This document shows, piece by piece, positions 3,575 through 50,043 of a stretch of DNA of 64,000 bases. The position numbers and the translations under genes were made by a program. The stretch is from Spirochaetia bacterium. Its GTDB lineage: Bacteria > Spirochaetota > Spirochaetia > UBA9216. The stretch lies in the NCBI GenBank assembly GCA_963675665.1, contig OY776510.1:1952001-2016000 (forward strand), written 5' to 3'. The stretch's first letter is position 1. Each line of letters starts with the position of its first letter. Below the pieces are notes generated by a model. That model saw nothing but the letters and a program-made list of their open reading frames with translations, had not been told where the DNA came from and ran no database searches.

Positions 3575-3584
3575 TAAATCCTCC

Positions 3585-5167: not shown

Positions 5168-5180
5168 TTGCAGTTTTTTG

Positions 5181-5211
5181 GAGTTCCGGCTGTAAATGCC
5201 GGAACTCTTTT
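5181..5211 (+). terminator. Intercistronic hairpin after SBP gene
   Basis: gagttccggc-tgtaaat-gccggaactc followed by tttt. Confidence 0.6.
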
Positions 5212-5231
5212 GCAGGCAGGAGATTTTAGTT

Positions 5232-7765: not shown

Positions 7766-7800
7766 AGACATGATAAAGAGGTAGATAAAGGAAGTTTGTA

Positions 7801-8331: not shown

Positions 8332-8342
8332 CAGAGAGAAAT

Positions 8343-9377: not shown

Positions 9378-9390
9378 TAAGGAGATTGTA

Positions 9391-10557: not shown

Positions 10558-10569
10558 GGAGCGTGCAGA

Positions 10570-11646
10570 ATGAAAGCAGCAATGTGGTTTAAAAGAGGTG
10601 ATATCAGGGTTATAGATAATGTTCAGGAACCTGAACCCGGCCCGGGACAGGTGAAAATAAAGGTTAAATGGTGCGGAATCTGCGGTTCGGATATTCATGA
10701 ATATACCGACGGTCCCATCAGTATCCCCGGCGACAAGCCGCATCCTGTAACCGGGGAAAAGGCCCCGGTAATTCTGGGCCATGAGTTTTCAGGCGATGTT
10801 GTTTCAGTCGGCAAAGGTGTTACGAAATTCAAAGCTGGCGACCGTGTTGCCGTAGAGCCGATTGTCAGGTGCGGGAAATGCAAGGCCTGTCTGGAAGGTC
10901 GTTACCACAACTGTATGAACCTTGGCTTTCACGGTATCTCCGGCGGCGGCGGCGGTTTTGCCGATTACACTGTATTCACGGAAGAGTTTATCCATAAGCT
11001 TCCCGACGAAATCAGTTATGAACAAGGCGCTACTATTGAACCTTTTTCGGTCGGAATGCACGCAGTACTGAAGGCGGACTTCAGGGCCGGCGGTGAGGCT
11101 CTTGTTCTGGGGGCCGGTCCGATCGGTATAGGTGTTATAGCATGTCTGAAAGCTGCGGGAGCACGCAAGATTGTATGTATGCAGAGAAAGTCCGTCAAAC
11201 AGCAGTATGCAATAGAGGCCGGCGCGGACGTAGTACTTGATCCGAATGAATGCAATGTAGCTGAAGAAATTAAGAAATTAACCGATGGCAACGGTATTGA
11301 ATATGTCTTTGAAACAACAGCAGCCCCGGTAGGCTTTGAAATGGCGCTGGACAGCGTAATGAAAGCGGGAACCATAACAGTGGTCAGTTTCTGGGATAAG
11401 GAAGTATCTTTCAACCTGAACCGGATGATGCTTACCGAAGTAAAAATAATCGGTTCAATCTGTTTTAATGATAATTTTCCGACTGTAATGAAGATGATGG
11501 CTGACAAGAGGATTAATACAGGATCGTATGTCACCAGGAAAATTCATCTTGATAAAATTATGGAAGAAGGTTTCAGCATCCTGATGGGACCGGAGAAGAA
11601 AGAGAATCTGAAAATTCTTGTAACTCCGGATTTGGCGCTGCTATGA
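10570..11646 (+). CDS. Zn-dependent dehydrogenase, 2,3-butanediol dehydrogenase-like
   Basis: '[14 protein letters not shown]', 'GHEFSG', CxxCxxC...C, 'GGGGGFA', 'GAGPIG'. Confidence 0.85.
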   Translation: MKAAMWFKRGDIRVIDNVQEPEPGPGQVKIKVKWCGICGSDIHEYTDGPISIPGDKPHPVTGEKAPVILGHEFSGDVVSVGKGVTKFKAGDRVAVEPIVRCGKCKACLEGRYHNCMNLGFHGISGGGGGFADYTVFTEEFIHKLPDEISYEQGATIEPFSVGMHAVLKADFRAGGEALVLGAGPIGIGVIACLKAAGARKIVCMQRKSVKQQYAIEAGADVVLDPNECNVAEEIKKLTDGNGIEYVFETTAAPVGFEMALDSVMKAGTITVVSFWDKEVSFNLNRMMLTEVKIIGSICFNDNFPTVMKMMADKRINTGSYVTRKIHLDKIMEEGFSILMGPEKKENLKILVTPDLALL

Positions 11647-12689
11647 GTAAAAATACTAAATGCATGAAACAGGCAGTAATGATAAAACCCGGGGAAATCC
11701 GGTTCAGGGAAGTAGATATCCCTGAGATAAACAATAACCAGGTGCTGATCAGGATTCATGAAATCGGAATATGCGGCTCGGATGTCCATGTTTATCACGG
11801 AAAACATCCGACAACAGATTATCCGGTTGTGCAGGGGCATGAAGTAAGCGGTGAAGTGGTTGAAACGGGAGCGAACGTTAAAAGGGTTAAACCCGGTGAT
11901 CGGGTAATAATTCGGCCCCAGATCGTATGCGGAAAATGTATGCATTGCCTTGAGGGTAATTATAACATCTGTGAAGAACTTAAGGTTCTTGGATTCCAGG
12001 CAGACGGTGCCGGTTCTGAATATTATGCTTCAGACGAGGAATACCTGATAAAAATGCCGGATGGACTTTCTTATTCAGGGGGTACTATTGCGGAGCCTTT
12101 GGCGGTAGGTATTCATGCTCTTGAAAAAGCCGGCGGTGTAAGCGGGTTGAATATATTGATAATAGGGGCAGGCCCAATCGGGAATTTAACAGCGCAGGCT
12201 GCCGGAGCAAAAGGTGCTTCCGCCGTGATGATTTCCGATATAAGCGCAAATCGTTTAAAACTGGCTGCAGCTTGCGGTATTGATTTCACTCACAACGCTG
12301 AAAGAGAAGAACTGGGTTCAGCGCTTATTAAGAATTTCGGTTATAAAAAGGCTGATATTATATTCGATTGCGTGGGTTCTGAAGCAAGTCTTGGGGTCTG
12401 TATAAAAAATGCAAGAAAAGGTACCGGAATTATTAATGTCGGTGTGTATGAAGGCGAGATCCTGGCCGACATGAGCAAGGTTCAGGACAATGAGTCAAAG
12501 CTGTCGGGCACTCTCATGTATACCGAAAAGGACATGCTTGAGGCGTTAGCCCTTCTTTCGTCGGGTTCAATCGATTATGACAGTTTAATTACCAGTAAGT
12601 TCCCATTTTCCGAATATCCTGAGGCGTATAAACACCTTGATGCAAACCGTGATGCCGAGATGAAAATTATTATCGACTTATTTAATTAA
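11643..12689 (+). CDS. Zn-dependent (MDR) sugar-alcohol dehydrogenase
   Basis: 'GICGSDVH', 'GHEVSG', 'CGKCMHC...C', 'GAGPIG'. Confidence 0.87.
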   Translation: MSKNTKCMKQAVMIKPGEIRFREVDIPEINNNQVLIRIHEIGICGSDVHVYHGKHPTTDYPVVQGHEVSGEVVETGANVKRVKPGDRVIIRPQIVCGKCMHCLEGNYNICEELKVLGFQADGAGSEYYASDEEYLIKMPDGLSYSGGTIAEPLAVGIHALEKAGGVSGLNILIIGAGPIGNLTAQAAGAKGASAVMISDISANRLKLAAACGIDFTHNAEREELGSALIKNFGYKKADIIFDCVGSEASLGVCIKNARKGTGIINVGVYEGEILADMSKVQDNESKLSGTLMYTEKDMLEALALLSSGSIDYDSLITSKFPFSEYPEAYKHLDANRDAEMKIIIDLFN

Positions 12690-12716
12690 TGTACTTTTAT
12701 ATAGGGAGTATATCTG

Positions 12717-13484
12717 GTGATCAGCAAAGAATATAAAGCCGGGTTCAGGCTTGACGGAAAAACAGCAGTAATTACAGGCGGTGCCTCGGGGATTGGATAT
12801 GAAACAGCAAAACTGTTCGTGGAAAACGGGGCAAAAATATATTTGCTGGATTTCCAACGGGAAAAAGCCGCAAAAGCTGCCGGAGAAATAAAAAATGCTT
12901 CTAGTGCTTTCGTTGATGTGACGGATCCTTCTTCCGTAAGCGGGGTAATTGACTCGATAATTGAAAAAACGGGAGGGATTGATATACTTGTTAACTGTGC
13001 CGGAATAGGTGATATAGACAAAGCTGAAAATTTCTCTCCCGACTCATGGCGGCGGGTAATTAATACAAACCTTAACGGCACTTTCTTTATGTCGCAGCGA
13101 GTTGGTAAAGAAATGATCAGAATCGGTAACGGCGGGAAAATAATCTGTCTTGCATCACAGGCCGGAATAGTAGCTATTGATAAACATGCAGCCTACAGCG
13201 CAAGCAAATCCGGTGTTATATCCGTTGTAAAATCGCTTGCATATGAATGGGGAAAATACGGTATACAGGTGAATGCCATATCGCCTACCGCCACCGAGAC
13301 CCCGATGATCAAGGGATACTGGGATGAAGGCGAGGTCCATGAGAATGCAATCAGCAACACACCTGCCGGAAGATATTGCAAGCCGGCTGAAATCGCTGCT
13401 GCTGCACTTTTCCTCGCATCCGACTCGGCAAACATGATCACCGGAGCTAATCTTGTAATCGACGGCGGATTTACGATCCATTAA
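12717..13484 (+). CDS. SDR dehydrogenase, GolD/DthD (D-threitol dehydrogenase)-like
   Basis: 'TGGASGIG', 'ASQAGIVAIDKHAAYSASK', 'NAISPT', 'TGANLVIDGGFT'. Confidence 0.8.
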   Translation: MISKEYKAGFRLDGKTAVITGGASGIGYETAKLFVENGAKIYLLDFQREKAAKAAGEIKNASSAFVDVTDPSSVSGVIDSIIEKTGGIDILVNCAGIGDIDKAENFSPDSWRRVINTNLNGTFFMSQRVGKEMIRIGNGGKIICLASQAGIVAIDKHAAYSASKSGVISVVKSLAYEWGKYGIQVNAISPTATETPMIKGYWDEGEVHENAISNTPAGRYCKPAEIAAAALFLASDSANMITGANLVIDGGFTIH

Positions 13485-13544
13485 TTTATCAGTGTACAAA
13501 GATACGAACAATATTCTCAATTTTAATTCAGAAGGGAGAAACAA

Positions 13545-14573
13545 ATGAAAGCGGCAGTATTAACTGAATTTAATAAAATAGAAATAATTGATAAAGTCCG
13601 GCCTTCGATAAGTGACGATGAAGTTCTTGTAAAGGTTAAATACAACGGAATCTGCGGCACAGATCTGCATGTTATGCAGGGACATCACCCTGCGGCCGTT
13701 CCGCCTCTTGTTATGGGACATGAATTCAGCGGGACGGTTGAAAAAAAGGGAAAACATGTCGGTGATGAAATAAAAATCAGAGACCGGGTCGTTGTTCAGC
13801 CGTATGAATCCTGCGGCGAATGTGAGCCGTGTAAATCAGGATGCGAGAACGTCTGCCGTGAGTTGAAGATCTTCGGAGTTCACAGGGACGGTGCATATCA
13901 GGAATATGTTAATGTAAAGGCGTCGCGGCTTTTCAGGCTGGATGATTCAATTTCTGATATTGCAGCTGCACTTATTGAGCCGCTGGCTGTTGCTGTTCAT
14001 GATGTAAAAAAGAGCGGTTTGAAGATTGGCGGTTCAGTTATCGTAATAGGCGGAGGCCCGATCGGTTTGCTTATTGCTGTTGTTGCAGGAATTAATGGCG
14101 CTTCGAAGATCGCTATCAGTGAGATAAATCCGGCACGTATTAAAAAAGCACGGCAACTGGGATTCCAGGTGATTAATCCTGCAGAAGAGAACCTTGCCGA
14201 TAAAGCATATAAGATGACTGACGGCCGAGGTTTTGACGCCGTATTCGAGGTTTCGGGCAGCCGGCCCGGAACAGAAGCGATGACTATGCTTGCCAAAACC
14301 AGCGGAACAATTGTAATTGTCGGGATCCCTCCGGAAAAACATCCTGTTGATACAGACACCGTTTTCAAGAAAGAATTGAATATAGTCGGAGTCAGACTTT
14401 ACTCTAAGGTAGATTTTCAGGCTGCCGTTGATATCATGAAGAATGAAGAAAACCGCAGGAAGCTGATGGAGCTTGTATCGGCTGAGTATCCGCTGGAGCA
14501 GTTGACTGAAGCAATTGCTTACCTGCGGAACAGCAGTGATGCGTACAAGGTCCTGATAAAGATTGGGGAGTAG
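13545..14573 (+). CDS. Zn-dependent (MDR) sugar-alcohol/sugar-acid dehydrogenase
   Basis: 'GICGTDLH', 'GHEFSG', 'CGECEPC...C', 'EPLAVAVHD', 'GGGPIG'. Confidence 0.87.
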   Translation: MKAAVLTEFNKIEIIDKVRPSISDDEVLVKVKYNGICGTDLHVMQGHHPAAVPPLVMGHEFSGTVEKKGKHVGDEIKIRDRVVVQPYESCGECEPCKSGCENVCRELKIFGVHRDGAYQEYVNVKASRLFRLDDSISDIAAALIEPLAVAVHDVKKSGLKIGGSVIVIGGGPIGLLIAVVAGINGASKIAISEINPARIKKARQLGFQVINPAEENLADKAYKMTDGRGFDAVFEVSGSRPGTEAMTMLAKTSGTIVIVGIPPEKHPVDTDTVFKKELNIVGVRLYSKVDFQAAVDIMKNEENRRKLMELVSAEYPLEQLTEAIAYLRNSSDAYKVLIKIGE

Positions 14574-14622
14574 TAAGTATTTTTTCCCTTAAAAATCTGA
14601 AATGTTAAAATCTATTTAATTC

Positions 14623-15568
14623 ATGCTTACGATGCAGCGTTTTCCGTGGGAACAGGGAGCAGCCTCCCAGGCGGCGCTTGAAATAGGAGATTTCACGACT
14701 GCAAAACTGCTTGCCCACGACGCTGTTCTCAGGCAGTCGCCTGACGGTCGCCTGAGCACAGCTTTTTACCGCGACGATATCGCTATCTTCGGCGATAATA
14801 TCACGGTTACCGACTCATCGGCAAACGGGGAGGCGGTGCTCTACTTCGCCGATAAAGATAAGGACGACGCCCTTCGCAAAGCTGCCGACTTACAGCCTAC
14901 ATGGCTTGCCGAATGCGCGCCGAGAACTAAAGGCGGGGTACTCTACCATGTTAAAAACAACAGACAAGTTTGGGTAGATTCGATATTCATGGCCCTGCCG
15001 TTCATGGTTTTAATGGGTGCAGACCTCGAAGCAGAGCAGCCGTTTGACGGTTTCTACCGTATTCTGCATGATTCCGAAACAAGCCTGCTCTCACACATCT
15101 GGGATGAGGCAACCGGAGACTTCGCCCACAGGGATTTCTGGGATGTGGGCAACGGATGGGCTGCGGCGGGCATGGCCAAGATAATCCGCTTTCTGCCGGA
15201 CTCCGAAGATTTATTTAAAACAAAGACAATCGGAATGGTAACGGATATAGTAGATGCAGTACTGAAATACAGGAACGACAAATATTTATTCAACAATATC
15301 ATAGATCGTCCTGAAACATTCGTTGAAGTAAACCAGGCTCAAATGATTTGCACACGATCTTTTCCGGTGTTTCGGAGGGCTGGATGAATGATTCCTATGC
15401 CGATGTAGCAATTAAAATCCGGACTGCCGTACTGGAAAACGTCGATGAGCTAGAGTTAGTTCATAACCTCTGAGGCTCGCAACCTTCGCGGAACCGGGGA
15501 CTGCTGTCGAAGGCCAGGCGTTTTTCCTCCTGATGGAAGCGGCCTACGCGAGGTATTCTGAACAGTAA
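14623..15568 (+). pseudogene. GH105/GH88-type (YteR-like) glycoside hydrolase pseudogene
   Basis: The ORF 14623..15387 has 'WEQG', 'WVDSIFMALP' and 'WDVGNGW'. The family-like sequence continues in other frames ('TIFSGVSEGWMNDSY...', a stop, then 'PGTAVEGQAFFLLMEAA' to TAA at 15568), implying frameshifts and a premature stop. Confidence 0.72.
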
Positions 15569-15804
15569 TTAATCTCAAACCGTTTGCACCATTCACAGAT
15601 TGCCTTAACGCTGGTCTGATACTTGTACTGCAGGTTAATTGCCATGCTTTTTCGAGGTTCAACTATTGCGTTAATAAAGTGTGTAAGTTATTTACATGTT
15701 TCCAGTCTTTATGTTTCTTTACATTGAAAGGTAACACTTTCTTAAATACGGTCTTTTGTATATAATTCTTTACTATGAAAAGATTTAGTTGAATTCGTTT
15801 GGAT

Positions 15805-15820
15805 TGGTACAGGAATTGCA
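15805..15820 (+). promoter_or_regulatory. sigma54 (-24/-12) promoter of the ABC/glycyl radical enzyme operon
   Basis: TGGTAC-AGGAA-TTGCA with GG-N10-GC spacing. A candidate UAS palindrome TGTAA-GTTAT-TTACA lies at 15682-15696. Confidence 0.8.
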
Positions 15821-15857
15821 TTATATTAAACCGAATAATCAACAGAGGAGGAGAAAA

Positions 15858-16865
15858 ATGTTGAGAAAATCTTTACTTTTCATCCTGGTGCTTCTTTTAG
15901 TCGGCGCGTTTTTTGCAGTAGCGGGCGGCCAGCAGGAAGCAGGCACAAATCCGGACGACGCTGAATTTCTTGTCGGCTTTGCAAACAGTTCAGTTGAACA
16001 CCCATGGAGGATTGCAATTCAGAACGCGATTCTTGATGAAGCTGCAAAGTATGATGATATTGCCATCATTACTACAGAAGCCGGTGAAGACCCGGTTCGG
16101 CAGGTACATAACGTTGAGGATATGCTGGCCAGGGGAATCGATCTCCTACTGGTCTGTACAGTGGAAGGCGAACCTTTCAAACCTGCAGTCGAGATGGTTA
16201 AGGACGCAGGAATCCCGCTTGTTCCTGTTGACAGGGCGATTATCGGAGATGATTATACCTGTTATATCGAACAGAGCAATATTGATATAGGAAAGAGAGC
16301 TGCCGACTGGATTGCCGAGCAGATGGTGAAGAAGTACGGTGAAGCCAGAGGCAAAGTCGTTGAACTTCAGGGGTTTCCCGGAAATATTCCTGCTGAACAC
16401 AGAAGAATCGGTTTTCATGACCAGGTAGAAGCAAAATACCCGAAACTTGAAATTGTTTCCGCACAGCCTACTGATTATACAAGAGCGAATTCATTACAGG
16501 TAATGGAAAATATCATTCAGGGACAACCCGAGATTGACGCTGTATATACTCATGAAGATGAAATTGCTTTCGGCGCAATTGATGCGTTAAAAGAAGCTAA
16601 AAGACTTGATGGCGTTATTATTACCGGTAACGGCGGTTCCGACAGAGCTCTGGAATCAATAAAAAAGGGAGAAATGACAGCATGCTTTACATATTCTCCG
16701 ATTGATTTCGGCCTTGTAGGTATGCAGATGGCCGCAAAGATTCTTCATGGTGAAGAGGTTCCGCGCATAGTCAATCTTCAGGGTGATATAATCACTTCTG
16801 AGAATGTCGACAAGTATATTGCCCAGCTTAAAGCAAACGGTGAAGTTTACGTAACAACAAGATAA
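15858..16865 (+). CDS. Sugar ABC transporter substrate-binding protein (RbsB family)
   Basis: ATG 15858 follows GAGGAGGAG; signal 'MLRKSLL...AGGQQE'; 'HPWR', 'PVDR', 'VVELQG', 'HEDEIAFGA'. Confidence 0.9.
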   Translation: MLRKSLLFILVLLLVGAFFAVAGGQQEAGTNPDDAEFLVGFANSSVEHPWRIAIQNAILDEAAKYDDIAIITTEAGEDPVRQVHNVEDMLARGIDLLLVCTVEGEPFKPAVEMVKDAGIPLVPVDRAIIGDDYTCYIEQSNIDIGKRAADWIAEQMVKKYGEARGKVVELQGFPGNIPAEHRRIGFHDQVEAKYPKLEIVSAQPTDYTRANSLQVMENIIQGQPEIDAVYTHEDEIAFGAIDALKEAKRLDGVIITGNGGSDRALESIKKGEMTACFTYSPIDFGLVGMQMAAKILHGEEVPRIVNLQGDIITSENVDKYIAQLKANGEVYVTTR

Positions 16866-16885
16866 CAATAAAAAATAATGTTTGT

Positions 16886-16911
16886 ACCTCCCGGATTGCC
16901 GGGAGGTTTTT
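16886..16911 (+). terminator. Intercistronic hairpin after SBP gene
   Basis: acctcccgg-attg-ccgggaggt followed by tttt. Confidence 0.6.
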
Positions 16912-16927
16912 CACCAAAGGAGACAGG

Positions 16928-18439
16928 ATGTCAAACGATTTCTTTTGTATTGATAAAATTGATAAATCATTCAGTGGAACACAGGTCCTGACTGATGTCA
17001 GTTTTTCCATGAAGAAGGGAGAGGTCCGGGCGCTGGTTGGAGAAAACGGCGCCGGTAAATCTACCCTAATGAAAATACTGTCGGGTGTACATCTTCCCGA
17101 CGGCGGAACAATGACATTGGACGGCAACAATATTCCTTTCGGGCATCTTTTAACAATTCAGGAATTGGGCGTAAGCGTTATATATCAGGAATTCAGCCTG
17201 GTTGAAGAACTTTCGGTAGCAGAGAATATTTTTCTGCGTCAGGCTGCTGAGGAATTTCCCCTGCGTATGATTTCCTGGAAAGATTATAACGAGCGAACTG
17301 TAGAAATACTGAAGGATTTGGGAATAGAAGGGATATTGCCTCAGGCTAAAGTAAAAACCTTAAGTGTAGCGCATAAGCAGATGGTTGAGATTGCCAAGGC
17401 CTTAACGATCGATGCCGGATTGATTGTAATGGACGAACCTTCTGCAACTTTAAATCAGAAAGAAACTGATCACCTTTTGGCAATTATTAAAGATTTAAAA
17501 GCGAAAGGTAAATCAATAATATATATAACACACAGACTTGAAGAGGTTAAACGAATTTGTGATTCGGTAACGATTCTAAAAGACGGCAGGGTCATCGAGA
17601 CAAGGGATATAGATACTATTGATAATGAGGAAATTATTTCATTGATGGTCGGGCGGGAAATGTCTGATTATTTTCCGTCCCGGCTTGATAGAGAGCTTGA
17701 TAAGGATAATCCGATTCTCGAAGTTCATTGTTTAAGAAGCAATAAAATTTCAGCTTCATCGTTCAAACTTTGCCGCGGAGAAATACTCGGCATAGGCGGT
17801 TTAACCGGTTCAGGCAGAACCGAACTTGTTCGCGCATTATGCGGGCTTGACAACAGCAAGGCAGATGAAATGTTTCTTGACGGCAATCCTGTGAATATAC
17901 GTTCTGTAAAAGACGCCATTTCTCACGGAATAGCATATCTGCCGGAAGAAAGAAAGACGCAGGGTCTTATTTTGGGAATGAGTATCAGACATAATGCTTC
18001 ATATACCGCTTTAAGGAAATTTATCAGAACACTTATAATTAATCAGGGAAAAGAAAGAGAAGCGGTTATGAAACAGGTTTCAGCACTTAGAATTAAATGT
18101 TCGGATATTGAACAAAGAGTTAAAGAGCTTAGCGGCGGGAATCAGCAGAAGGTTGTTCTTGCAAAGTGGCTTCTTAATGATCCCAAAATATATATCATGG
18201 ACGAACCTACCCGAGGAATTGATGTAGGAGCAAAAAAAGAAATTTATGAAATAATGCATAAGCTTGCGGTGTCGGGAGCGTCGATAATATTCATTTCATC
18301 CGAAATGCCGGAATTGCTTAACATGAGCGATAAAATTCTTGTTATGGCAAACGGTTCTCTTGTTGATGAAATAGACGCGGAATTTGCAACAGAAGAAAAA
18401 ATACTTACTATGGCAATTAAGGAAAAGGAGGCATGTTGA
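16928..18439 (+). CDS. Sugar ABC transporter ATP-binding protein (CUT2)
   Basis: 'GENGAGKST', 'MDEPS', 'ITHRLEE', 'LSGGNQQK', 'DEPTRGIDVGAK'. Confidence 0.93.
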   Translation: MSNDFFCIDKIDKSFSGTQVLTDVSFSMKKGEVRALVGENGAGKSTLMKILSGVHLPDGGTMTLDGNNIPFGHLLTIQELGVSVIYQEFSLVEELSVAENIFLRQAAEEFPLRMISWKDYNERTVEILKDLGIEGILPQAKVKTLSVAHKQMVEIAKALTIDAGLIVMDEPSATLNQKETDHLLAIIKDLKAKGKSIIYITHRLEEVKRICDSVTILKDGRVIETRDIDTIDNEEIISLMVGREMSDYFPSRLDRELDKDNPILEVHCLRSNKISASSFKLCRGEILGIGGLTGSGRTELVRALCGLDNSKADEMFLDGNPVNIRSVKDAISHGIAYLPEERKTQGLILGMSIRHNASYTALRKFIRTLIINQGKEREAVMKQVSALRIKCSDIEQRVKELSGGNQQKVVLAKWLLNDPKIYIMDEPTRGIDVGAKKEIYEIMHKLAVSGASIIFISSEMPELLNMSDKILVMANGSLVDEIDAEFATEEKILTMAIKEKEAC

Positions 18440-19407
18440 TGTCGGGAGTGATATCGGTTTCAAACAGTTCCAAAGAAAAGGTTATAAAAATTATAAATAT
18501 AAAGGGTTTGCCGATTTTGATCGGTTTTATTGTACTTGTCGTGTTGGCAAGTGTGTTATCGCCGTCTTTCCTGCAACCAACTAACCTGTTTAATATTTTA
18601 AGGCAGGTCTCATCCAATTGCATAATAGCAGTCGGCATGACCTTTGTTATCCTGACCGGGGGCATAGATTTATCGGTTGGTTCGATTGTTGCTCTTGCGA
18701 GTGTTCTTGTTGCGCTTGCACAGAATTACGGAATGAACAGTTTTGTAACCGTTATAATCGGTTTAGGCACCGGAGCTTTTTGCGGTTTGTTTAACGGCTT
18801 TATAATTGTAAACAGAAAACTTCAGCCTTTTATTGTTACTCTCGCAACCATGACCATAGCGCGCGGTTTTGCTTATATAATCTCTGGCGGGCGTCCGATT
18901 ATGGGAATCAGCGACAATTTCAGGGTGATTGCAACCAGTTATATTGGGCCTTTGCCGATACCTGCTGTTTACATGATAGTAATTATTGTCCTTTCCTATA
19001 TAGTATTGACCAGAACCTATTGGGGAAGGGCTTATTTTGCAATCGGAGGCAATGAAGAAGCTGCCAGGCTGTCCGGCACCAGGGTAGATCTCTATAAATC
19101 ACTTGCATATGTGTTATCGGGGATGTTGTGTGGGTTTGTTGCTATCACTGTTGTAGCCAGGGTAACTGTCGGAGAACCTATTATTGGTCAGGGTTGGGAA
19201 CTTGATGCTATAGCTGCAGTTGTAATAGGCGGAACATCGCTGTCGGGCGGAGTCGGGGGTGTAATAGGCACTTTAATAGGGGCCCTGATCCTTGGGGTTT
19301 TAAGCAATATATTTAACCTGCTGAATATTTCCGCTTATGTGCAAATGGTTTTTAAAGGCATAATCATACTTGTTGCTGTTCTGGCATCAACAAAGAAGGA
19401 TTCCTGA
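18433..19407 (+). CDS. Sugar ABC transporter permease (RbsC family)
   Basis: 'ILTGGIDLSVGS', 'GGNEEAARLSG', 'WELDAIAAVVIGGTSLSGGVG'. Confidence 0.92.
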   Translation: MLMSGVISVSNSSKEKVIKIINIKGLPILIGFIVLVVLASVLSPSFLQPTNLFNILRQVSSNCIIAVGMTFVILTGGIDLSVGSIVALASVLVALAQNYGMNSFVTVIIGLGTGAFCGLFNGFIIVNRKLQPFIVTLATMTIARGFAYIISGGRPIMGISDNFRVIATSYIGPLPIPAVYMIVIIVLSYIVLTRTYWGRAYFAIGGNEEAARLSGTRVDLYKSLAYVLSGMLCGFVAITVVARVTVGEPIIGQGWELDAIAAVVIGGTSLSGGVGGVIGTLIGALILGVLSNIFNLLNISAYVQMVFKGIIILVAVLASTKKDS

Positions 19408-19425
19408 TATATTAATGAGGTTTGA

Positions 19426-21852
19426 ATGGAAAATATAATCAGCAATGAAGCTTATTTTAAATTGAAAACGGAGTTTTCCGTGCCTTCGGAAAGGTTCACT
19501 GAGCTTAGGGCCAGGTTGCTGGCTGTAAAACCCGAATTGTGCCCGGAGCGTGCACGATATTTGACACAGTCGTTTAAAGAAACAGAGGGCGAACCGTATA
19601 TAATCAGACGGGCAAAGGGTTTCTATAATGTCCTTGCCAATATGTCGTTGTTTATAAATGAAAAAGAACTGTTTGCAGGTAACCAGGCAGGTTCGCTCAG
19701 GGCTTGTCCGTTTTATCCTGAAACGGAAAGTGTATACTTTAAGGAAGAAATTGATCTTTTTCCTGTCAGAGAAAACGATCGTGTTCAGATAAATCCTGAA
19801 GTCAGGGAAGAAGTGCTAAATGAAATCATCCCGTACTGGATTGACAAGAACACGGAAAAGATTTCTCTGAAACGTATTCCTCCGGAAACCCTTGAGTTGA
19901 TAAATGCGCCTCACCAGATCTTTTCTCCCCAGATACATATGAGGGGAAGTCTTGCGCATACTATTGCAGATTATTCCATGGTTCTGGATAAAGGCATACT
20001 TAATATCAGGGAAGAGCTTTTACAAAGGCAAAAAGCCCTGGATTTGACGATACCGGAAAACCTTGAACACTATCATTTTTGCGAAGCAGAAATCATAATT
20101 TGTAATGCGCTTATGCTGCTGGCTTCAAGATACTCCGACCTTGCTTATAAAATGGCTGATGAAGAAACCGATCCCGTCCGTTCGGAAGAGCTTCGTACTA
20201 CAGCTGCAGCATGTGCAAGGGTCCCTGCGTATCCCGTAGAAAGTTTCTTTGAAGCGTTGCAATCCTTCTGGCTTGTTCACCTCGGACTTTATATAGAACA
20301 GAACGGTTTGGCCATTTCGGTAGGACGGTTTGATCAGTATATGTATCCTTACCTGAATGCTGATCTTAAAAATAAAAAAATTACTCTTTCAGAGGCTCAG
20401 GAGTATCTGGATATTTTATGGATTAAATTCACGGAAATAATGAGGGCATATGATCTTAAATCCGCCAGATACTACGGCGGGTTTGCCATATCCGAGAATC
20501 TTGTTCTCGGCGGAATCCTTGAAAACGGGAAAGATGCTACGAACATTCTCTCTTATATGTGCCTTGATTCAGAGTTTAAAACGAGGTTGAGCCAGCCGAA
20601 TGTTGCCGTAAGGATGCATCAGAATATTCCCCGCGCCCTTTTGATAAAGGCATGTAAAATTATAAGAGAGGGCGGCGGAAAACCCGAACTGTTCAATGAT
20701 GACGTCGGTATTCCATTGCTTCTCAGGACCGGCGTCACGCTGGAAGATTCACGCAATTATGATATCTCCGGCTGTGTAGAGCCGGTTCCTCCGGGGACTC
20801 TGGGAATCACGAACGCTTCGATGTCCAACCTTGCAAAGGCGCTGGAGCTTGCCCTTAATAACGGAAAATGCCGTCTGAGCGGAACTCAGATGGGTCCCGT
20901 GACCGGCACGCCCGATAAATTCAAATCAATAGAAGACGTAATATACGCTTTCAGGCAGCAGGTCGAAGCGTATGTAGAGCATATGATTATCGCTATTAAT
21001 ACCATTGAGAGTGTCCACAGGGAGTTTCTGCAGATACCTTTTACTTCGCTTACGCTTACAGGATGTTTAGAGAAGTGTCTTGACGCCACCGCCGGAGGAG
21101 CAATTTATAATTACACAGGACCGCAGGGAGTCGGCGTGGCTGATGTAGCTGACTCTCTTGCCGCAATCCAGAAACTTGTTTTTGAGGATCATTTTATTTC
21201 AATGGATGAACTGAATGCTGCTCTTGATAATAATTTCGAATCATTGCCTGAACTTCTCAATATGGCCCGTAAGGTTCCCAAATACGGTAACGATGATGAT
21301 TATGTCGATCAATATGCATCCGTGATTGCAAAAATTTACTGTGATGCTGTAGAAAAGTATAAAAACCCGAGAGGCGGGGCCTACAGGCCCGGGTTATATC
21401 CGGTATCGGCCAATGTGCCTTTGGGGGAAGCTGTAGGTGCGCTTCCTTCAGGCAGGAAAGCCGGAACTCCTCTTGCTGACGGGATATCCCCGGAACATTT
21501 TATGGACACAAACGGGCCTACGGCGGTTATGAGATCGGCTGCAAAAATGGATCATACTATCGTTTCAAACGGCACGCTTCTTAATCAAAAATTTGATCCG
21601 GTTTATTTAAAAACCGATGAGAACATAAACCGGTTGGTGGATATGATCAGGGCGTATTTTGATCTTGGCGGGTGGCACGTTCAATTCAATGTTGTAAACA
21701 AGGAAACACTGTTGAAGGCCCAGGCTAATCCCGGGGAATATTCAGGACTCCTGGTCAGGGTAGCAGGATACAGCGCTTTCTTTGCCGAGTTAAGCGATGT
21801 TATCCAGAATGATATAATCGACCGAACAGAGTTCTCAGAAATTATAAACTAG
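19426..21852 (+). CDS. Glycyl radical enzyme, PFL2/glycerol-dehydratase (eliminase) class, substrate unknown
   Basis: Cys loop 'SGCVEP', glycyl loop 'LLVRVAGYS', 'GRFDQY', 'PKYGND', 'PLADGISP', 'HVQFNVV'; 808 aa; lacks the CC pair of true PFL. Confidence 0.9.
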   Translation: MENIISNEAYFKLKTEFSVPSERFTELRARLLAVKPELCPERARYLTQSFKETEGEPYIIRRAKGFYNVLANMSLFINEKELFAGNQAGSLRACPFYPETESVYFKEEIDLFPVRENDRVQINPEVREEVLNEIIPYWIDKNTEKISLKRIPPETLELINAPHQIFSPQIHMRGSLAHTIADYSMVLDKGILNIREELLQRQKALDLTIPENLEHYHFCEAEIIICNALMLLASRYSDLAYKMADEETDPVRSEELRTTAAACARVPAYPVESFFEALQSFWLVHLGLYIEQNGLAISVGRFDQYMYPYLNADLKNKKITLSEAQEYLDILWIKFTEIMRAYDLKSARYYGGFAISENLVLGGILENGKDATNILSYMCLDSEFKTRLSQPNVAVRMHQNIPRALLIKACKIIREGGGKPELFNDDVGIPLLLRTGVTLEDSRNYDISGCVEPVPPGTLGITNASMSNLAKALELALNNGKCRLSGTQMGPVTGTPDKFKSIEDVIYAFRQQVEAYVEHMIIAINTIESVHREFLQIPFTSLTLTGCLEKCLDATAGGAIYNYTGPQGVGVADVADSLAAIQKLVFEDHFISMDELNAALDNNFESLPELLNMARKVPKYGNDDDYVDQYASVIAKIYCDAVEKYKNPRGGAYRPGLYPVSANVPLGEAVGALPSGRKAGTPLADGISPEHFMDTNGPTAVMRSAAKMDHTIVSNGTLLNQKFDPVYLKTDENINRLVDMIRAYFDLGGWHVQFNVVNKETLLKAQANPGEYSGLLVRVAGYSAFFAELSDVIQNDIIDRTEFSEIIN

Positions 21853-22779
21853 ATGAATGGTAATTACGGTATAATTTCGGAGATACAACGATTCTGTATT
21901 CATGACGGGAAGGGTTTAAGGACCACAGTATTTTTAAAAGGCTGTCCGCTTAGATGTGCATGGTGTTCAAATCCTGAAACACAGTCAGCAGAAAAAGAAC
22001 TGATGTATTTTCAAAAAAACTGCGTCGGGTGCGGGCGTTGCATTAACAGTTGTCCAAATAATGCCTTAAGTTTCGATAATCAAAGGGTTGTTGTCGAAAA
22101 GGATAAATGCGATCTATGCGGGAAATGTGAAAAAAGCTGTTTTTATAATGCGCTTAAAATCAAAGGCGAAGAAATGGAAGTCTTTGAAATAATTGAGCTG
22201 CTGATGAAGGATTTCAAGTTTTTTGAAAAGAGCGGCGGAGGCCTGACGATTTCGGGAGGCGAACCTACATCACAACCGGAGTTTACAAAAAAGTTATTAA
22301 TCACTGCTGGAAAGCTGGGAATAAATACAGCTATTGAGACCTGCGCCCTGTGCAGGCAGGAAACCTTGCTGGATATTGCTGAATATTGTGATGAAATATT
22401 TATTGATCTGAAAATTGCGGATGCGGTGGCGCACAGCAAATGGACCGGGGCGGATAACAGGACGATTGTTGAAAATATAAGAATATTATTGAAGACTATG
22501 GCATCCAAAGTAAATATTCGAATTCCTGTGATTGAGGGAATAAATACCGGATATAATGATATTTTTCAAATTTCAAAACTTTTGAAAGATCTTTATTGTG
22601 ATCTTTTACCCAAAGAAATTGTTATAGAGTTAATGCCTTATCATCGTTTGGGCAGCGGCAAGTATGATGCTCTTCAGATGAAATATTCCCTGGAAAATCT
22701 TAAGCCGATGAGTATGGAAAGAATTGAAGATATAAAGAATATTTTTAAAGAAAACGGTATTACAGCCATTACCCCGTAA
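21853..22779 (+). CDS. Glycyl radical enzyme activating protein (radical SAM with 2x[4Fe-4S] insert)
   Basis: 'HDGKGLRTTVFLKGCPLRCAWCSNPE', two CxxCxxCxxxC motifs, 'GGLTISGGEP', 'MPYHRLG'. Confidence 0.93.
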   Translation: MNGNYGIISEIQRFCIHDGKGLRTTVFLKGCPLRCAWCSNPETQSAEKELMYFQKNCVGCGRCINSCPNNALSFDNQRVVVEKDKCDLCGKCEKSCFYNALKIKGEEMEVFEIIELLMKDFKFFEKSGGGLTISGGEPTSQPEFTKKLLITAGKLGINTAIETCALCRQETLLDIAEYCDEIFIDLKIADAVAHSKWTGADNRTIVENIRILLKTMASKVNIRIPVIEGINTGYNDIFQISKLLKDLYCDLLPKEIVIELMPYHRLGSGKYDALQMKYSLENLKPMSMERIEDIKNIFKENGITAITP

Positions 22780-22780
22780 T

Positions 22781-24595
22781 TTACGGGGTAATAACAGGGA
22801 GCTCGATCAGAAATTGAGCTCCCTTCCCGATATCCCTGCCGATTGTGATGTTCCCCTCATGTTTTGTGATAATGCTATGGATAATTGACAAACCCATACC
22901 CAGATGGGTCCCGGTTTTTGTTTTTGTCGAGAAAAAAGGAAGAAAAATATCGCTTATAATATCTGTCGAAATTCCGGGGCCATTATCCTCAAATGTTAAT
23001 TTTAGTTTATCATTAGTATTCTCAAGAGTGATATTGATCTCTCCATTTCCTGTCAGAACATCATTACTGTTTCTTATTAAATTTAACATAATTTGTTTAT
23101 ATTCGTTTTGGGTTATCGGACAAAATGCAAGATCCTCAAGTTTATTTAGAAGATTGATTCTCAACCCGTCATATTGCGGATTATGTTTGATAAAGCTTAT
23201 TATTTGGGCTGTTGTTTCATAAATATTGACATAGTCGTTCTTTGTCGGGTTTTTATCCGAAAAGGATATAAGGTTGTCGACTACATTCTCAATGAAATCC
23301 AACTCCTCTCTTATATGATCATACAGTTCAATATCTTCAGACTTTGTTCTTTTAAACAACAGCAGGTTAGAGAAACTGTTCAGGGCCTCGAGAGAGTTGT
23401 TAATTTCATGGGCAATGCCTGCGGACAGAATACCAATTGAGGAAAGATTCTGTGCGAGGATAAGTTTTTCCTGCAAAGTCACAAGTTCAGAAACATCTTC
23501 AATTAAAAAAATATTCCCGATATTCATACTGTCTTCTGTAATCGGTAAAATTTTTATATTTACACTCGTCTGTCTGTTCCCTATTATCATCGGGACATGG
23601 TAAAAACTGTGAATTTGATTTGTATTTGATGATTCTTCAATTATATGAAGAAATGAATTATTATTCTTTGCAAAAAAATCATTAAGCCGGCTTTTCAGGT
23701 AGTCTTCATTTTCAATATTAAAATATTTCTTGAAATAGTTGTTTACCATTATAATTTCCATTTGACGATTTGTAACAATTATATTTGACGGAAGGCTTTC
23801 AAGAATTGCTTCGTTGAATTTCAGGAAATGATAAAATGACTTATTTAATTCTTCCATATTATATGTAAGCGAAGGATTTGTGTATGTAAGTCTGATAAGA
23901 TTAATTTTGTCAATGCTGTCTATTTTATCCGAAAAGATTATTTCGCCGTTTTTTATTATACTGACTCTTTCGGCGATATCGTAAATATAACTTATTTTTG
24001 TTGTAAAGAATAATACTGATCCACCTTTTTGGGAGTAATCCTTAAGTATCTCGTAAACCCTGACAAGATCCGCCGAGTTGATTTTGGAAAACATCTCGTC
24101 AATAATCAGCAATTCAGGAACAGGTTCCAGCTTGTTTAATAATTCAAGAATTGCAATATCTGATTGATTAAGATTTTTAAGCTGTGCAAAGGGGTCGATA
24201 TCAAAACCATACTTGTGAAAGTCTCTTTTTGCCATACTCACAAATCTTTTTCTGCTGCTGAAGCCTATTATATGTTTGCTAAACTTGTTGTGGTACAGAT
24301 ACTCCCCGGCTATAAAGGCCTGATTAAGAATAAGATGCTGGGGTACCATGGTTATTGACGGTTTATTTTTTATTCTGGCAAGTTTAGAATGGGTTTGCCC
24401 CCGGTATGTAAATGTTCCGGAAGAATTCAGCAATTGATTTTTCAGCAGTTTTCCCAGCAATGTTTTTCCGGCTCCGGATTCTCCGATTATTGCATGAACC
24501 TCGCCCCTGTTTAAATCAAGATTTATTATATTCAGATACATTTTATCTTTAAAATGGACTTTTATATTGTTCAGACTTAATAACGGATTAATCAT
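22781..24595 (-). CDS. Second soluble ABC-ATPase-like/PAS/histidine kinase fusion
   Basis: 'GEVHAIIGESGAGKT', 'VPQH', 'LLIIDE', 'IIKNGEI'; PAS-like middle; 'AGIAHEINNSL', 'NLIRNS', 'DNGPGI', 'IFLPFFST', 'GMGLSI'. No TM. ATG 24595 overlaps the regulator stop (ATGA); an alternative start is at 24610. Confidence 0.85.
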   Translation of the reverse strand: MINPLLSLNNIKVHFKDKMYLNIINLDLNRGEVHAIIGESGAGKTLLGKLLKNQLLNSSGTFTYRGQTHSKLARIKNKPSITMVPQHLILNQAFIAGEYLYHNKFSKHIIGFSSRKRFVSMAKRDFHKYGFDIDPFAQLKNLNQSDIAILELLNKLEPVPELLIIDEMFSKINSADLVRVYEILKDYSQKGGSVLFFTTKISYIYDIAERVSIIKNGEIIFSDKIDSIDKINLIRLTYTNPSLTYNMEELNKSFYHFLKFNEAILESLPSNIIVTNRQMEIIMVNNYFKKYFNIENEDYLKSRLNDFFAKNNNSFLHIIEESSNTNQIHSFYHVPMIIGNRQTSVNIKILPITEDSMNIGNIFLIEDVSELVTLQEKLILAQNLSSIGILSAGIAHEINNSLEALNSFSNLLLFKRTKSEDIELYDHIREELDFIENVVDNLISFSDKNPTKNDYVNIYETTAQIISFIKHNPQYDGLRINLLNKLEDLAFCPITQNEYKQIMLNLIRNSNDVLTGNGEINITLENTNDKLKLTFEDNGPGISTDIISDIFLPFFSTKTKTGTHLGMGLSIIHSIITKHEGNITIGRDIGKGAQFLIELPVITP

Positions 24596-25911
24596 TTTTT
24601 CTCTTGGCATGGAATCTTATATTTATCGATTTTATTGTAAAGGGTTTTTCTGGATATTCCCAATTCTTCTGCTGTCCGTTTCTTGTTAAATTTATTTTTC
24701 CTCAACGAGTTGAAGATTGTATTGTATTCAACATTGGCGATAGGGCTGGGATTAAAATTGGAGTTCTTTAAACTGTATAAATTGTGCGGCAGGTCTGATA
24801 TTTTGATATTATTATCAGTACAAACCGCAGAAGCATATTCAATAACATTTTTGAGTTCGCGAATATTCCCCGGCCAATGATATTTACAAAGCAGTTTTAT
24901 AACTTCCTTGTCAATTGAAATACTATTGTCTGATATTTCAATAAAATGAGTAATCAGCAGCGGTATGTCCTCACGTCTTTCCCTTAAAGGGGGAATCTCA
25001 AATATTACAGTATTTAACCTGAAATATAGGTCCTCCCGGAATGTGTTATTATGCATCATCTGTTGTATATTTTTATTTGTTGCCGCTATAAATCTTGTAT
25101 TTATTTTGATAATTTCATCTCCGCCAAGCCTTCTTATTTCATTGTTTTGCAAAGTTCGTAGTATCTTTGCTTGGATATCCAGAGACATATCGCCTATCTC
25201 ATCAAGAAACAGGCTGCTGTTATCAGCACGTTCGAATACGCCTTTATATTGTCTGTCTGCACCTGTGAAAGCTCCTCTTTCATGTCCGAAAAGTTCATTG
25301 TCGAGCAGGTTCTCCTGAAAAGCAGCGCAATTAATTTTCAGTATTCTGTTTTCTTTTCGGGGAGAATGAAAGTGCAGTTTCTCGGCTATATTTTCTTTTC
25401 CGACACCATTTTCGCCCAAGATAAGGACAGGTAGGTTTGTCGGCCCTATCTTTTCAATCCTGCTGATTATTTCAAGCATTCTTGGGTTCTGGGTAATTAT
25501 CCGGGTTTCAAATGAGTCTTCAGATGTTTTTTTATCAATACTTTTAAAATTGTTTAGTATGGAACTTTTAACTGTATTATAAAGCTGATCGTATTTAATC
25601 GGTTTCTGAATATAATCATATGCCCCGTATTTCATTGCGTCAACAGCAGACACTACAGTTCCAAAGCCGGTTATTATGATGACAGGTACTGACGGAATCA
25701 TTTTTTTTAATTTTTTCAGGACCTCTATGCCGTTCTCATCGCCCAACATTAAATCAAGAAGAATACAATGCGGATTAAATTTGATAATACGATGAAATAC
25801 ACTTTTAGAAGAGAGCGCGTATTCCGCTTGATATCCATTTTTTTCGAAGTTTTTCTTCAGGCCTATACAAATATTTTCTTTATCATCTATAATAAAAAGT
25901 CTGTATTTCAT
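24592..25911 (-). CDS. NtrC-family sigma54-dependent response regulator
   Basis: REC 'IIDD...LLDLML...QKP', 'GENGVGKE', 'GAFTGA', 'WPGNIREL', 'LGISRKTLY'. Confidence 0.93.
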   Translation of the reverse strand: MKYRLFIIDDKENICIGLKKNFEKNGYQAEYALSSKSVFHRIIKFNPHCILLDLMLGDENGIEVLKKLKKMIPSVPVIIITGFGTVVSAVDAMKYGAYDYIQKPIKYDQLYNTVKSSILNNFKSIDKKTSEDSFETRIITQNPRMLEIISRIEKIGPTNLPVLILGENGVGKENIAEKLHFHSPRKENRILKINCAAFQENLLDNELFGHERGAFTGADRQYKGVFERADNSSLFLDEIGDMSLDIQAKILRTLQNNEIRRLGGDEIIKINTRFIAATNKNIQQMMHNNTFREDLYFRLNTVIFEIPPLRERREDIPLLITHFIEISDNSISIDKEVIKLLCKYHWPGNIRELKNVIEYASAVCTDNNIKISDLPHNLYSLKNSNFNPSPIANVEYNTIFNSLRKNKFNKKRTAEELGISRKTLYNKIDKYKIPCQEKK

Positions 25912-26152: not shown

Positions 26153-26677
26153 TTATTCCGGAAAAAATTTCACTTCGCTGGTTTCAGTCCAGGGGATGTC
26201 CGGCGGTGTGCCGAAATTTTTCACCATTTCGATACGTATGTACTTTGCATTTACAGGCTTATCCAGTTTGAAGGTCTGCCAGCTTTCCTCTTTTTTAATT
26301 TTGCATTCTAGGACCTTTGTCCATTCGACCGAATCTATATCATCCAGATCAGATTTAAGCTCCCGCGGAGCTTCTGTATTGCAGATATAGATATTAATGT
26401 CGCTTGCGAGTTCTTCCAGTATGCTTATCGGCAGTCCGACGTTTGTGAAAAACCTGACTGTTTTGACGGGCTGCTCTTCCCCGAAAAAACTCAGAATTAC
26501 GTTTACCGGCCCCATTGTATTGGCGCCGTATGTTCCTCCGCTGCGTTCAATATCATCATCGATTATGTTGAGTACCCAGAAAAGCGGGTTGCTTTCCGTG
26601 TGACTGGCCCATTCAATCCTGGTGTAATAGGAGCCGTCGCGTCTGAGCCCCAGCGGATATAGTTCTTTATTATTCAT
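26153..26677 (-). CDS. Hypothetical cytoplasmic protein, galactose-binding/discoidin (F5/8 type C)-like
   Basis: GGAGG RBS. The C-terminal 'WQTFKLDKPVNAKYIRIEMVKNFG...SEVKF' resembles F5/8C strands. No signal peptide. Confidence 0.6.
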   Translation of the reverse strand: MNNKELYPLGLRRDGSYYTRIEWASHTESNPLFWVLNIIDDDIERSGGTYGANTMGPVNVILSFFGEEQPVKTVRFFTNVGLPISILEELASDINIYICNTEAPRELKSDLDDIDSVEWTKVLECKIKKEESWQTFKLDKPVNAKYIRIEMVKNFGTPPDIPWTETSEVKFFPE

Positions 26678-50029: not shown

Positions 50030-50043
50030 TAGGAGGGATTTTA

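Follow-up and report, generated by a model that had tools for sequence, protein, structure and literature searches.

The closest described relatives of the enzyme considered here are glycyl radical enzymes (GREs) that act as eliminases or isomerases. In the sections covered of a June 2026 review, the eliminases comprise glycerol dehydratase (GD), 1,2-propanediol dehydratase (PD), HpfG, HypD, HpyG, HpzG, CutC, IslA/IseG and HpsG, and the isomerases comprise HplG, YbiW and PflD (PMC13450708). According to the same sections, the characterised members act on small diols, amino acid derivatives, choline, sulfonates or sugar phosphates; no GRE listed there acts on an unphosphorylated sugar or polyol, and whole GRE clades are said to remain unassigned (PMC13450708). 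One such candidate is the subject of this analysis: a GRE and its activating enzyme encoded at positions 19426–22779 of a 64,000-nucleotide stretch (hereafter the window; positions 1,952,001–2,016,000 of contig OY776510.1) from a Spirochaetia bacterium. On sequence grounds we read this GRE, with a probability of roughly 0.55, as a C–O-cleaving 1,2-eliminase (dehydratase) that acts on a neutral polyhydroxy compound, with sugar alcohols and sugars as the likeliest candidates.

In GD, Cys433 abstracts a hydrogen atom, Glu435 deprotonates the C1 hydroxyl and His164 protonates the departing C2 hydroxyl (PMC13450708, section 5.6.1), and across the Cys-x-Glu (CXE) class the Glu of this loop is described as the base that acts on a substrate hydroxyl (PMC13450708, sections 5.6 and 5.7). 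The C–S lyases IslA, IseG and HpsG bind their sulfonate through an Arg–Arg–Gln triad (PMC13450708, section 5.6.3). A search of full-text literature, with subscription-only papers outside its scope, found no GRE for sugar alcohols, erythritol, free anhydroglucitol or polyols, and what that literature holds on glycyl radicals together with transketolases mostly concerns sulfoquinovose, with no free-sugar or polyol GRE among it.

The locus is a real, intact pair of an oxygen-sensitive GRE and its activase:

19426–21852, plus strand, glycyl radical enzyme P0001 (Pfam PF02901 and PF01228; NCBIfam TIGR01774; GD/PD alignment; AlphaFold model)
21853–22779, plus strand, GRE activating enzyme, radical S-adenosylmethionine (SAM) family (translation; NCBIfam TIGR02494)

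P0001 is the product of an uninterrupted open reading frame (ORF) of 808 amino acids, and the activase ORF of 308 amino acids begins at the base immediately after its stop codon. The GRE carries the PFL-like domain (PF02901, E 4e-202) and the Gly_radical domain (PF01228, E 4e-33); the activase scores 323 bits against a cut-off of 174 for the glycyl-radical activating enzyme model, and its translation shows a CPLRCAWC (CX3CX2C) cluster motif followed by two ferredoxin-type Cys motifs, although no specific activase equivalog exceeds its cut-off in the NCBIfam scan of 21853–22779. All seven motifs quoted in an earlier note on this DNA are present in P0001, namely GSLAHTIAD (174–182), EQNGLAIS (291–298), YYGGFAISEN (349–358), GCVEP (449–453), GITNASMS (460–467), LYPVSANV (657–664) and RVAGYS (778–783). 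The Cys loop is thus G449-C450-V451-E452-P453, the Gly loop R778-V-A-G781-Y-S and the general-acid His is His178. An AlphaFold2 model built from a 56-sequence clade alignment has a mean pLDDT of 89 and a pTM of 0.90, and it superposes on PD (5i2g) and GD (1r8w) with TM scores of 0.94–0.96 at 40–41% identity. The hallmarks of the superfamily (a PFL-like barrel, a C-terminal RVxG[FWY] Gly domain and a radical SAM activase) are all found at 19426–22779, and the G-C450-V-E452-P loop, which aligns with C433 and E435 of GD, places the enzyme in the CXE class.

The substrate pocket was compared by aligning P0001 with GD and PD in HMMER, residue by residue, at positions that we take to line the GD and PD pocket; the roles of residues other than His164 are likewise assumed by us. 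The catalytic set is kept, with GD Cys433, Glu435 and His164 aligned with C450, E452 and H178, whereas nine of the ten other GD pocket positions compared are replaced. His281 and Ser282 of GD become Leu295 and Ala296, Tyr339 and Gln340 become Ser356 and Glu357, Trp445, His446 and Asp447 become Ile461, Thr462 and Asn463, and Phe450 and Phe451 become Met466 and Ser467; Tyr640 is kept, and Ser642 is Val in P0001, as it is in PD. At the level of motifs, the contrast that the earlier note had drawn is borne out, with SNGHS and GWHD in GD and SSGHS and GWHD in PD against QNGLA and GITN in P0001. Of the His164, His281/Ser282, Asp447 and Tyr339 (Phe in PD) that characterise the GD/PD pocket, the equivalent of His164 alone remains. 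Because several bulky residues have become small, one acid is new and no Arg or Lys has been gained at the compared positions, the pocket is suggested to favour a larger substrate that is uncharged or possibly cationic. Judged by the aligned residues, the substrate is not glycerol or 1,2-propanediol.

The whole-protein scores point the same way as to assignment: only the broad subfamily model TIGR01774 exceeds its cut-off for P0001 among the NCBIfam models, and no equivalog for a specific enzyme does so:

PflD-type enzyme (NF007437), 629 bits, cut-off 1109
HpsG, 628 bits, cut-off 1000
HypD, 617 bits, cut-off 1100
HpfG, 594 bits, cut-off 1000
CutC, 556 bits, cut-off 1050

Ranked against solved structures, P0001 scores highest with GD (663 bits), followed by PD (646), a second PD (9rco, 618), PflD (561) and CutC (541), then HypD and others; the C–S lyase structures 7kq3, 5ymr and 6lon reach 466–479 bits, these being whole-protein scores alone.

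A search across 5.8 billion proteins listed 119 matches besides P0001, and a joint alignment of these shows that the altered pocket is not peculiar to the window copy. The signature L295, E357, T/S462 and N463 occurs in 76 of the 119 listed matches, the GD signature, meaning His and Asp at the corresponding positions, in 19 and neither in 24. Q292, L295, E357, C450, E452, N463, Y658 and V660 are invariant among the 76; H178 is present in 75, the remaining member being gapped at that position, and the GD-pocket replacements L295/A296, N463 and S356 are reported as fixed across the 76. The nearest listed matches are metagenomic, at 62–63% identity, together with one partial sequence of 636 amino acids at 73%, and with these the window copy forms a small sister group that is otherwise metagenomic only among the matches listed. 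The next group, at 50–57%, is large and includes, among the matches listed, metagenome-assembled genomes of Spirochaetales and Aerophobetes as well as Clostridium algifaecis and C. tyrobutyricum.

A FastTree tree of 63 rows combined selected matches with eight paralogues encoded in the window's genome and with PflD and YbiW of E. coli; characterised GD, PD, HypD, CutC and the sulfonate lyases stood outside it, GD being represented by GD-signature homologues and the other distances being taken from scores and identities. P0001 falls in a six-row clade (support 100) nested in a 32-row clade (support 99), and the GD-signature proteins form a clade of their own (support 100) outside the latter. 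E. coli PflD and YbiW lie further out than the GD-like clade, each beside a paralogue from the window's genome. It is well supported that P0001 belongs to a coherent, uncharacterised GRE clade with a distinct pocket and, as described below, a conserved dehydrogenase partner. The statement in the earlier note that the specificity is unassigned therefore holds, given the absence of any equivalog above its cut-off, the 40–41% identity to the nearest solved GREs, the changed pocket, the separate clade and the lack of a counterpart in the review sections; grouping with a characterised GRE in which all active-site residues are conserved, which that note had named as the outcome that would tell against it, was not what the alignment and tree returned.

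The large sister group is also represented in the window's own genome, by a paralogue at contig positions 4317636–4319981. Neither this paralogue nor any of its relatives (in Spirochaetales, Clostridia, Aerophobetes and Clostridium tyrobutyricum) is characterised; they are 54–56% identical to P0001 and share its pocket signature; they differ from it beside the pocket (LAH in P0001 and IGH in the group, YPVS and YSVS, GG and AG before F353). Their operons run dehydrogenase, dehydrogenase, GRE and activase behind canonical sigma-54 promoters, whereas the window copy adjoins an importer operon instead. In a sample of 401 genomes of the same class, 8 have a match of E 1e-200 or better, counting the genome of the window; as every match apart from the window's own gene is 54–56% identical, the sample yielded no orthologue of the window copy. 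Among 400 genomes of the class of another locus (L097), a clade-level match was seen in the centre genome alone, and four other matching genomes, at 44–47%, were dropped. A metagenome scan with peptide patterns returned mostly distant GREs, the best full-length match being 44% identical and partial matches up to 51%. The window's genome itself holds at least nine GRE-like genes, including a PflD-like paralogue at contig position 2052876 and a YbiW-like one at 2043315. A further paralogue at 5048463–5050883, 36% identical to P0001, has one in-frame TAG in an otherwise full-length match, for which decay of the gene, an error in the sequence or recoding of the codon could each account. Among P0080–P0085 there are also compact GREs of about 723 amino acids that bear the same pocket signature (EQDGLA, ISEN, TNA); for four of the five compact proteins (P0080, P0082, P0083 and P0085) neither the precomputed Pfam list nor the alignment shows a Gly-radical domain.

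The genes around the GRE form a single same-strand row at 3878–22779, which runs from one importer of the CUT2 family of ATP-binding cassette (ABC) transporters through a DUF2148 protein, a series of dehydrogenases that includes medium-chain (MDR) and short-chain (SDR) dehydrogenases/reductases, and a GH88-like remnant, then across a 290-base gap to a second CUT2 importer, the GRE and the activase. All assignments are from Pfam unless another source is given:

3878–5167, 5196–6752 and 6719–7765, plus strand, binding protein, ATPase and permease of the CUT2 importer that is not adjacent to the GRE
7801–8331, plus strand, DUF2148 ferredoxin-domain protein
8343–9377, plus strand, zinc MDR dehydrogenase
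9391–10557, plus strand, iron-type alcohol dehydrogenase, 9 kb upstream of the GRE
10570–11646, plus strand, zinc MDR dehydrogenase
11643–12689, plus strand, zinc MDR dehydrogenase
12717–13484, plus strand, SDR of the GolD/DthD family (NF005309, 298 bits, cut-off 286)
13545–14573, plus strand, zinc MDR polyol-type dehydrogenase, orthologue of GRE-adjacent dehydrogenases
14623–15568, plus strand, GH88/GH105-like remnant (GH88, profile positions 72–256 only)
15858–16865, plus strand, CUT2 substrate-binding protein with signal peptide, like ribose-binding protein with a different ligand pocket (Peripla_BP_4)
16928–18439, plus strand, CUT2 ABC ATPase with two nucleotide-binding domains (ABC_tran twice; named sugar equivalogs all below their cut-offs)
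18433–19407, plus strand, CUT2 ABC permease (BPD_transp_2; RbsC model 275 bits, cut-off 398)

Such a row contradicts the earlier statement that no aldehyde-processing genes are present, since 8343–14573 encodes four zinc MDR enzymes, the SDR and the iron-type alcohol dehydrogenase on the strand of the GRE, and an aldehyde oxidoreductase lies at 50005–51867. The SDR has sorbitol dehydrogenase (4npc, 231 bits) as its best solved match, and the translation of 13545–14573, in which the catalytic and structural zinc motifs are visible, has threonine, sorbitol and ketose dehydrogenases as its nearest solved relatives; this resemblance of the SDR and MDR enzymes to sorbitol and other polyol dehydrogenases supports a polyol substrate.

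To see which of these genes travel with the clade, the window was set beside 11 loci with clade members at least 50% identical (L009, which is a 56% paralogue in the window's own genome, L011, L012, L013, L014, L095, L096, L097, L100, L174 and L175). A scan of genome contigs with the clade alignment had given 79 loci, of which 6 were at least 50% identical; the remainder, of GD-like or PflD-like type, were set aside, and L099 (3.6 kb, compact type) was left unannotated. Counts over the 12 loci were as follows:

activase directly downstream of the GRE, 10 of 12 loci
zinc MDR dehydrogenase in the locus, 10 of 12 loci
zinc MDR dehydrogenase directly upstream of the GRE, 8 of 12 loci
CUT2 ABC genes, 5 of 12 loci
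sigma-54 regulator with ATPase-headed kinase, 4 of 12 loci, all from one genus
tungsten aldehyde:ferredoxin oxidoreductase within 10 kb, 4 of 12 loci
split transketolase, 4 of 12 loci
tandem DJ-1/PfpI, 3 of 12 loci
VOC/glyoxalase, 2 of 12 loci
iron-type alcohol dehydrogenase, 2 of 12 loci
class II aldolase, 1 of 12 loci

Among the ORFs scanned, none of the 12 loci revealed a sugar kinase of the FGGY, PfkB or ROK families, and the absence of a kinase stated in the earlier note agrees with the window itself, where no sugar-kinase family appears among the 52 ORFs scanned by Pfam; nor was a phosphotransferase system (PTS) found in the window by those scans. In an all-against-all comparison, the 13545–14573 enzyme shares 51–53% identity with the dehydrogenases beside the GREs of L097 and L011 and 40–42% with those of L009, L012, L013 and L014, whereas the other three MDR enzymes of the window are 24–36% identical to every GRE-locus dehydrogenase compared. 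Because of this difference, 13545–14573 is, on these identities, the conserved dehydrogenase partner of the clade.

The importer is a different case. The CUT2 genes at 15858–19407 immediately precede the GRE on its own strand, with successive gaps of 63, −7 and 19 bases. The binding protein starts at the ATG at 15858, which has a Shine–Dalgarno sequence and is the start used in the earlier note, rather than at the TTG at 15789 chosen by the ORF tool. The ribose equivalogs fall below their cut-offs (RbsB 153 against 337, RbsA 503 against 745, and RbsC as listed), and the best solved match of the binding protein is 2ioy, at 187 bits. Of 11 residues that we take to be the ribose contacts of the E. 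coli protein, only three (D89, R90 and R141) are kept, and because of this the ligand is, on the predicted contacts, not ribose. The earlier note had further called the importer dedicated to the GRE: the adjacency stands, and dedication was read from adjacency alone, the binding proteins beside related GREs being 31–34% identical to the 15858 protein. At such identities, binding-protein orthology was dropped as a route to the ligand.

Some 28–30 kb from the GRE lies a further set of genes (Pfam assignments) that may bear on the fate of the product:

49233–49883, minus strand, GntR/FCD regulator
50005–51867, tungsten aldehyde:ferredoxin oxidoreductase
51864–53652, split transketolase
53667–54422, SDR

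The oxidoreductase and transketolase (50005–53652) are 65–79% identical to genes beside the GRE operons of L012 and L013, from the same genus. It is possible that 49233–54422 is a downstream module of the GRE pathway, but the link is weak because the genome has 11 transketolase-N and 16 tungsten oxidoreductase matches.

How, then, might the enzyme work? The chemistry is probably the known 1,2-elimination, because P0001 keeps intact both the Cys-x-Glu loop and the general-acid His of the known C–O eliminases, and the new radical chemistry proposed in the earlier note was to that extent overstated; it is the substrate that would be new, because the pocket is remodelled and conserved and the clade is separate. 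A neutral polyhydroxy compound is favoured because of the polyol-type dehydrogenase partner, the sugar-type importers, the lack of any kinase found and the lack of any anion-binding residue gained, and the class of neutral sugar, polyol or cyclitol suggested earlier is reasonable in the light of the CUT2 importer, the polyol-type dehydrogenases and the absence of new Arg or Lys at the compared positions. By analogy with GD, the activase would set a radical on Gly781, which would pass to Cys450 as a thiyl radical; a carbinol carbon of the substrate would lose a hydrogen to the thiyl, Glu452 would deprotonate the hydroxyl on the radical-bearing carbon, His178 would protonate the adjacent oxygen so that it departs, and the hydrogen would be handed back to give a deoxy-aldehyde or deoxy-ketone. 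The substrate would be a larger neutral polyol, for example a C4–C6 sugar alcohol or sugar, entering unphosphorylated by way of the adjacent CUT2 importer. Its product, or else a precursor of the substrate, would be handled by the 13545–14573 dehydrogenase and the other upstream NAD(P) dehydrogenases, and the tungsten aldehyde oxidoreductase and split transketolase may carry the product further. Both the direction of the dehydrogenase step and the substrate class are what we infer from this arrangement.

Other readings of the same enzyme must be set against this one. Since E. coli PflD and YbiW, for which a mechanism is set out in the review (PMC13450708), likewise retain the Cys-x-Glu loop and the His, P0001 could be a ring-opening isomerase that acts on an unphosphorylated anhydro-alditol, cyclic ether or glycoside-like compound, expelling the ring or ether oxygen to give a 1-deoxy-ketose that would pass to the zinc dehydrogenases. 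PflD and YbiW (1,5-anhydro-hexitol 6-phosphate isomerases; 8yjo, 8id0 and 8id7) do share with P0001 a carbohydrate-like substrate as well as the catalytic set, and the adjacent sugar-type importer, with no kinase found, would suit such a compound. However, they are 34–38% identical to P0001, their pocket motifs differ, the PflD-type equivalog falls far short (629 against 1109), the tree places P0001 nearer the GD-like clade, and the genome already has its own PflD-like and YbiW-like paralogues; in E. coli, moreover, their substrates are phosphorylated through the PTS, whereas the window locus has an ABC importer and no kinase that could be found. We regard ring opening as unlikely. Less probable again is a drift of the pocket within an ordinary glycerol or 1,2-propanediol dehydratase that serves, with the iron-type alcohol dehydrogenase 9 kb upstream, as the reductive branch of polyol fermentation. 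GD (Clostridium butyricum DhaB1, 1r8w/1r9d) and PD (Roseburia inulinivorans, 5i2a/5i2g; also 9rco–9rcr) are indeed the best matches in sequence (663 and 646 bits, 41% and 40% identity) and in fold; GD shares the Cys-x-Glu loop, the His164 and Tyr640 equivalents, RVAGYS and an adjacent activase gene, and PD has an identical LYPVSANV strand, including the Val at the place of GD Ser642. Yet all nine of H281, S282, Y339, Q340, W445, H446, D447, F450 and F451 are replaced, PD reading FQN where P0001 reads SEN, and the replacements are fixed across the clade, with true GD-signature proteins in a clade apart. The surroundings differ too: GD belongs to a dha regulon, whereas the window locus has a sugar ABC importer, which glycerol and propanediol do not need, and polyol dehydrogenases, and no bacterial microcompartment stands near it. 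As the earlier note had claimed, the window lacks a shell gene; the only PF00936 matches of the genome are at contig 370–373 kb, 1.6 Mb from the window at 1952–2016 kb. A drifted GD or PD is accordingly the reading to which we give least credence.

The last alternative, which we hold to be quite improbable, turns on the new acid. CutC and HypD bind the amine through acidic residues, and Glu357, which stands where GD has Gln340 and does not vary in any of the 76 clade members, might bind an ammonium group, making P0001 a C–N eliminase of an amino-polyol or amino-alcohol from which ammonia or an amine departs. Against it, the neighbours are polyol dehydrogenases and sugar-type importers, the Pfam scans revealed no aminotransferase or deaminase in the operon, and CutC (556 against 1050) and HypD (617 against 1100) are far under their cut-offs.

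The dehydratase of a neutral polyhydroxy compound remains the reading we prefer, and several points weigh against it as well. The enlargement of the pocket would follow from substitutions in an alignment, and the invariant Glu357 could equally fit a cationic (amino) substrate. The importer is, as far as identity tells, a non-conserved partner of clade GREs, because the neighbouring binding proteins are only 31–34% identical, and ABC genes were not seen in 7 of the 12 loci. Within the window, a decayed gene, the 290-base gap and the importer genes stand between the 13545–14573 dehydrogenase and the GRE, and the transketolase and oxidoreductase, besides being members of large paralogous sets, lie at the distance given above. 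The neighbour counts overstate independence, since one genus supplies 4 of the 12 loci, and a number of the contigs are short. In addition, the VOC/glyoxalase, DJ-1/PfpI and aldehyde oxidoreductase genes of related loci hint at a reactive aldehyde or dicarbonyl product, which is outside the simple model.

The decayed gene is the GH88/GH105-like remnant, whose N-terminal third is gone and which continues in two other frames at 15327–15473 and 15467–15568; it is probably a pseudogene, with the dehydrogenase block on one side of it and the importer–GRE block on the other. A GH88-like neighbour also occurs in L175, and was dropped as a clue because the two genes give no mutual BLAST match at E 1e-5. 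The related loci offer a few observations of their own. A protein of 437–439 amino acids with two DJ-1/PfpI domains adjoins the kinase of the paralogous GRE operon in L009 (7481–8797), L012 (3108–4418) and L013 (17954–19264), and in L011 and L174 a VOC/glyoxalase gene is found directly upstream of the GRE in place of the DJ-1/PfpI protein. L095 (Spirochaetaceae) has, at 2961–6162, a second GRE of 769 amino acids with its own activase, a few kb upstream of the clade GRE and followed by two ORFs of 766 and 173 amino acids without a Pfam match, and in L096 another GRE, which is clade-like, similarly precedes the clade GRE.

Regulation of the row may involve sigma-54. Pairs of a kinase and a sigma-54 response regulator flank 3878–22779 on both sides, and candidate promoters precede both binding-protein genes:

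423–2240, minus strand, second kinase headed by an ABC-ATPase domain, divergent from the row at 3878 (Pfam)
2237–3592, minus strand, sigma-54 response regulator of that second pair (Pfam)
3775–3790, plus strand, candidate sigma-54 promoter TGGCAT-N5-TTGCT, upstream of the 3878 binding protein
15805–15820, plus strand, candidate sigma-54 promoter TGGTAC-N5-TTGCA, 38 bases before the binding-protein ATG
22781–24610, minus strand, sensor kinase with N-terminal ABC-ATPase domain, convergent with the activase (Pfam)
24592–25911, minus strand, sigma-54 response regulator (Pfam)

The pattern TGGNA-N6-TTGCW occurs twice in the 64-kb window, each time immediately before a binding-protein gene; because 1.68 would be expected by chance, it is the placement of the elements at 3775–3790 and 15805–15820, and that alone, which is suggestive. 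Under the strict sigma-54 consensus with two mismatches allowed, there were fewer matches than in shuffled sequence, and a scan of 3400–23200 for sigma-70 promoters and terminators gave counts no higher than in shuffled sequence. In L009, L012 and L013 a canonical TGGCAC-N5-TTGC[AT] element stands at the head of the dehydrogenase–GRE operon. Sigma-54 control and co-transcription of the GRE row are what we infer. Other sequence features nearby are a palindrome, TGTAAGTTATTTACA, at 15682–15696, which is unique in the window, and repeated GGTACATTATTGT(A/T)AC elements at about 3608–3650, near the 3775–3790 candidate promoter. The same pairing of a sigma-54 regulator with a soluble histidine kinase headed by an ABC-ATPase domain recurs beside the GRE operons of L009, L012 and L013. 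The stop codons of the activase and the convergent kinase are one base apart (22779–22781), which leaves no space for an intervening terminator. Just upstream of the sigma-54 regulator at 24592–25911, an ORF of 174 amino acids at 26153–26677 with a weak F5/8 type C (discoidin) match ends a minus-strand CUT2 importer operon.

Taken one step further, and tentatively, the clade may consist of dehydratases of free alditols or free sugars that support a kinase-independent radical fermentation of imported C4–C6 polyols, with the dehydrogenases, transketolase and tungsten aldehyde oxidoreductase acting downstream; we consider this fuller scheme possible, though doubtful. If it is true, the product would enter central metabolism or serve as an electron sink, in an analogue for larger substrates of the branch that leads from glycerol to 1,3-propanediol. 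A free sugar alcohol or sugar would then be a new class of GRE substrate, and such enzymes would explain how some anaerobes ferment reduced carbohydrates without oxygen or B12, here in a spirochaete with at least nine GRE paralogues. The clade is one good discovery candidate among many unassigned GRE clades rather than an anomaly, and its fixed pocket signature, its conserved dehydrogenase partner and the binding protein beside the window copy provide handles by which its substrate may be found.

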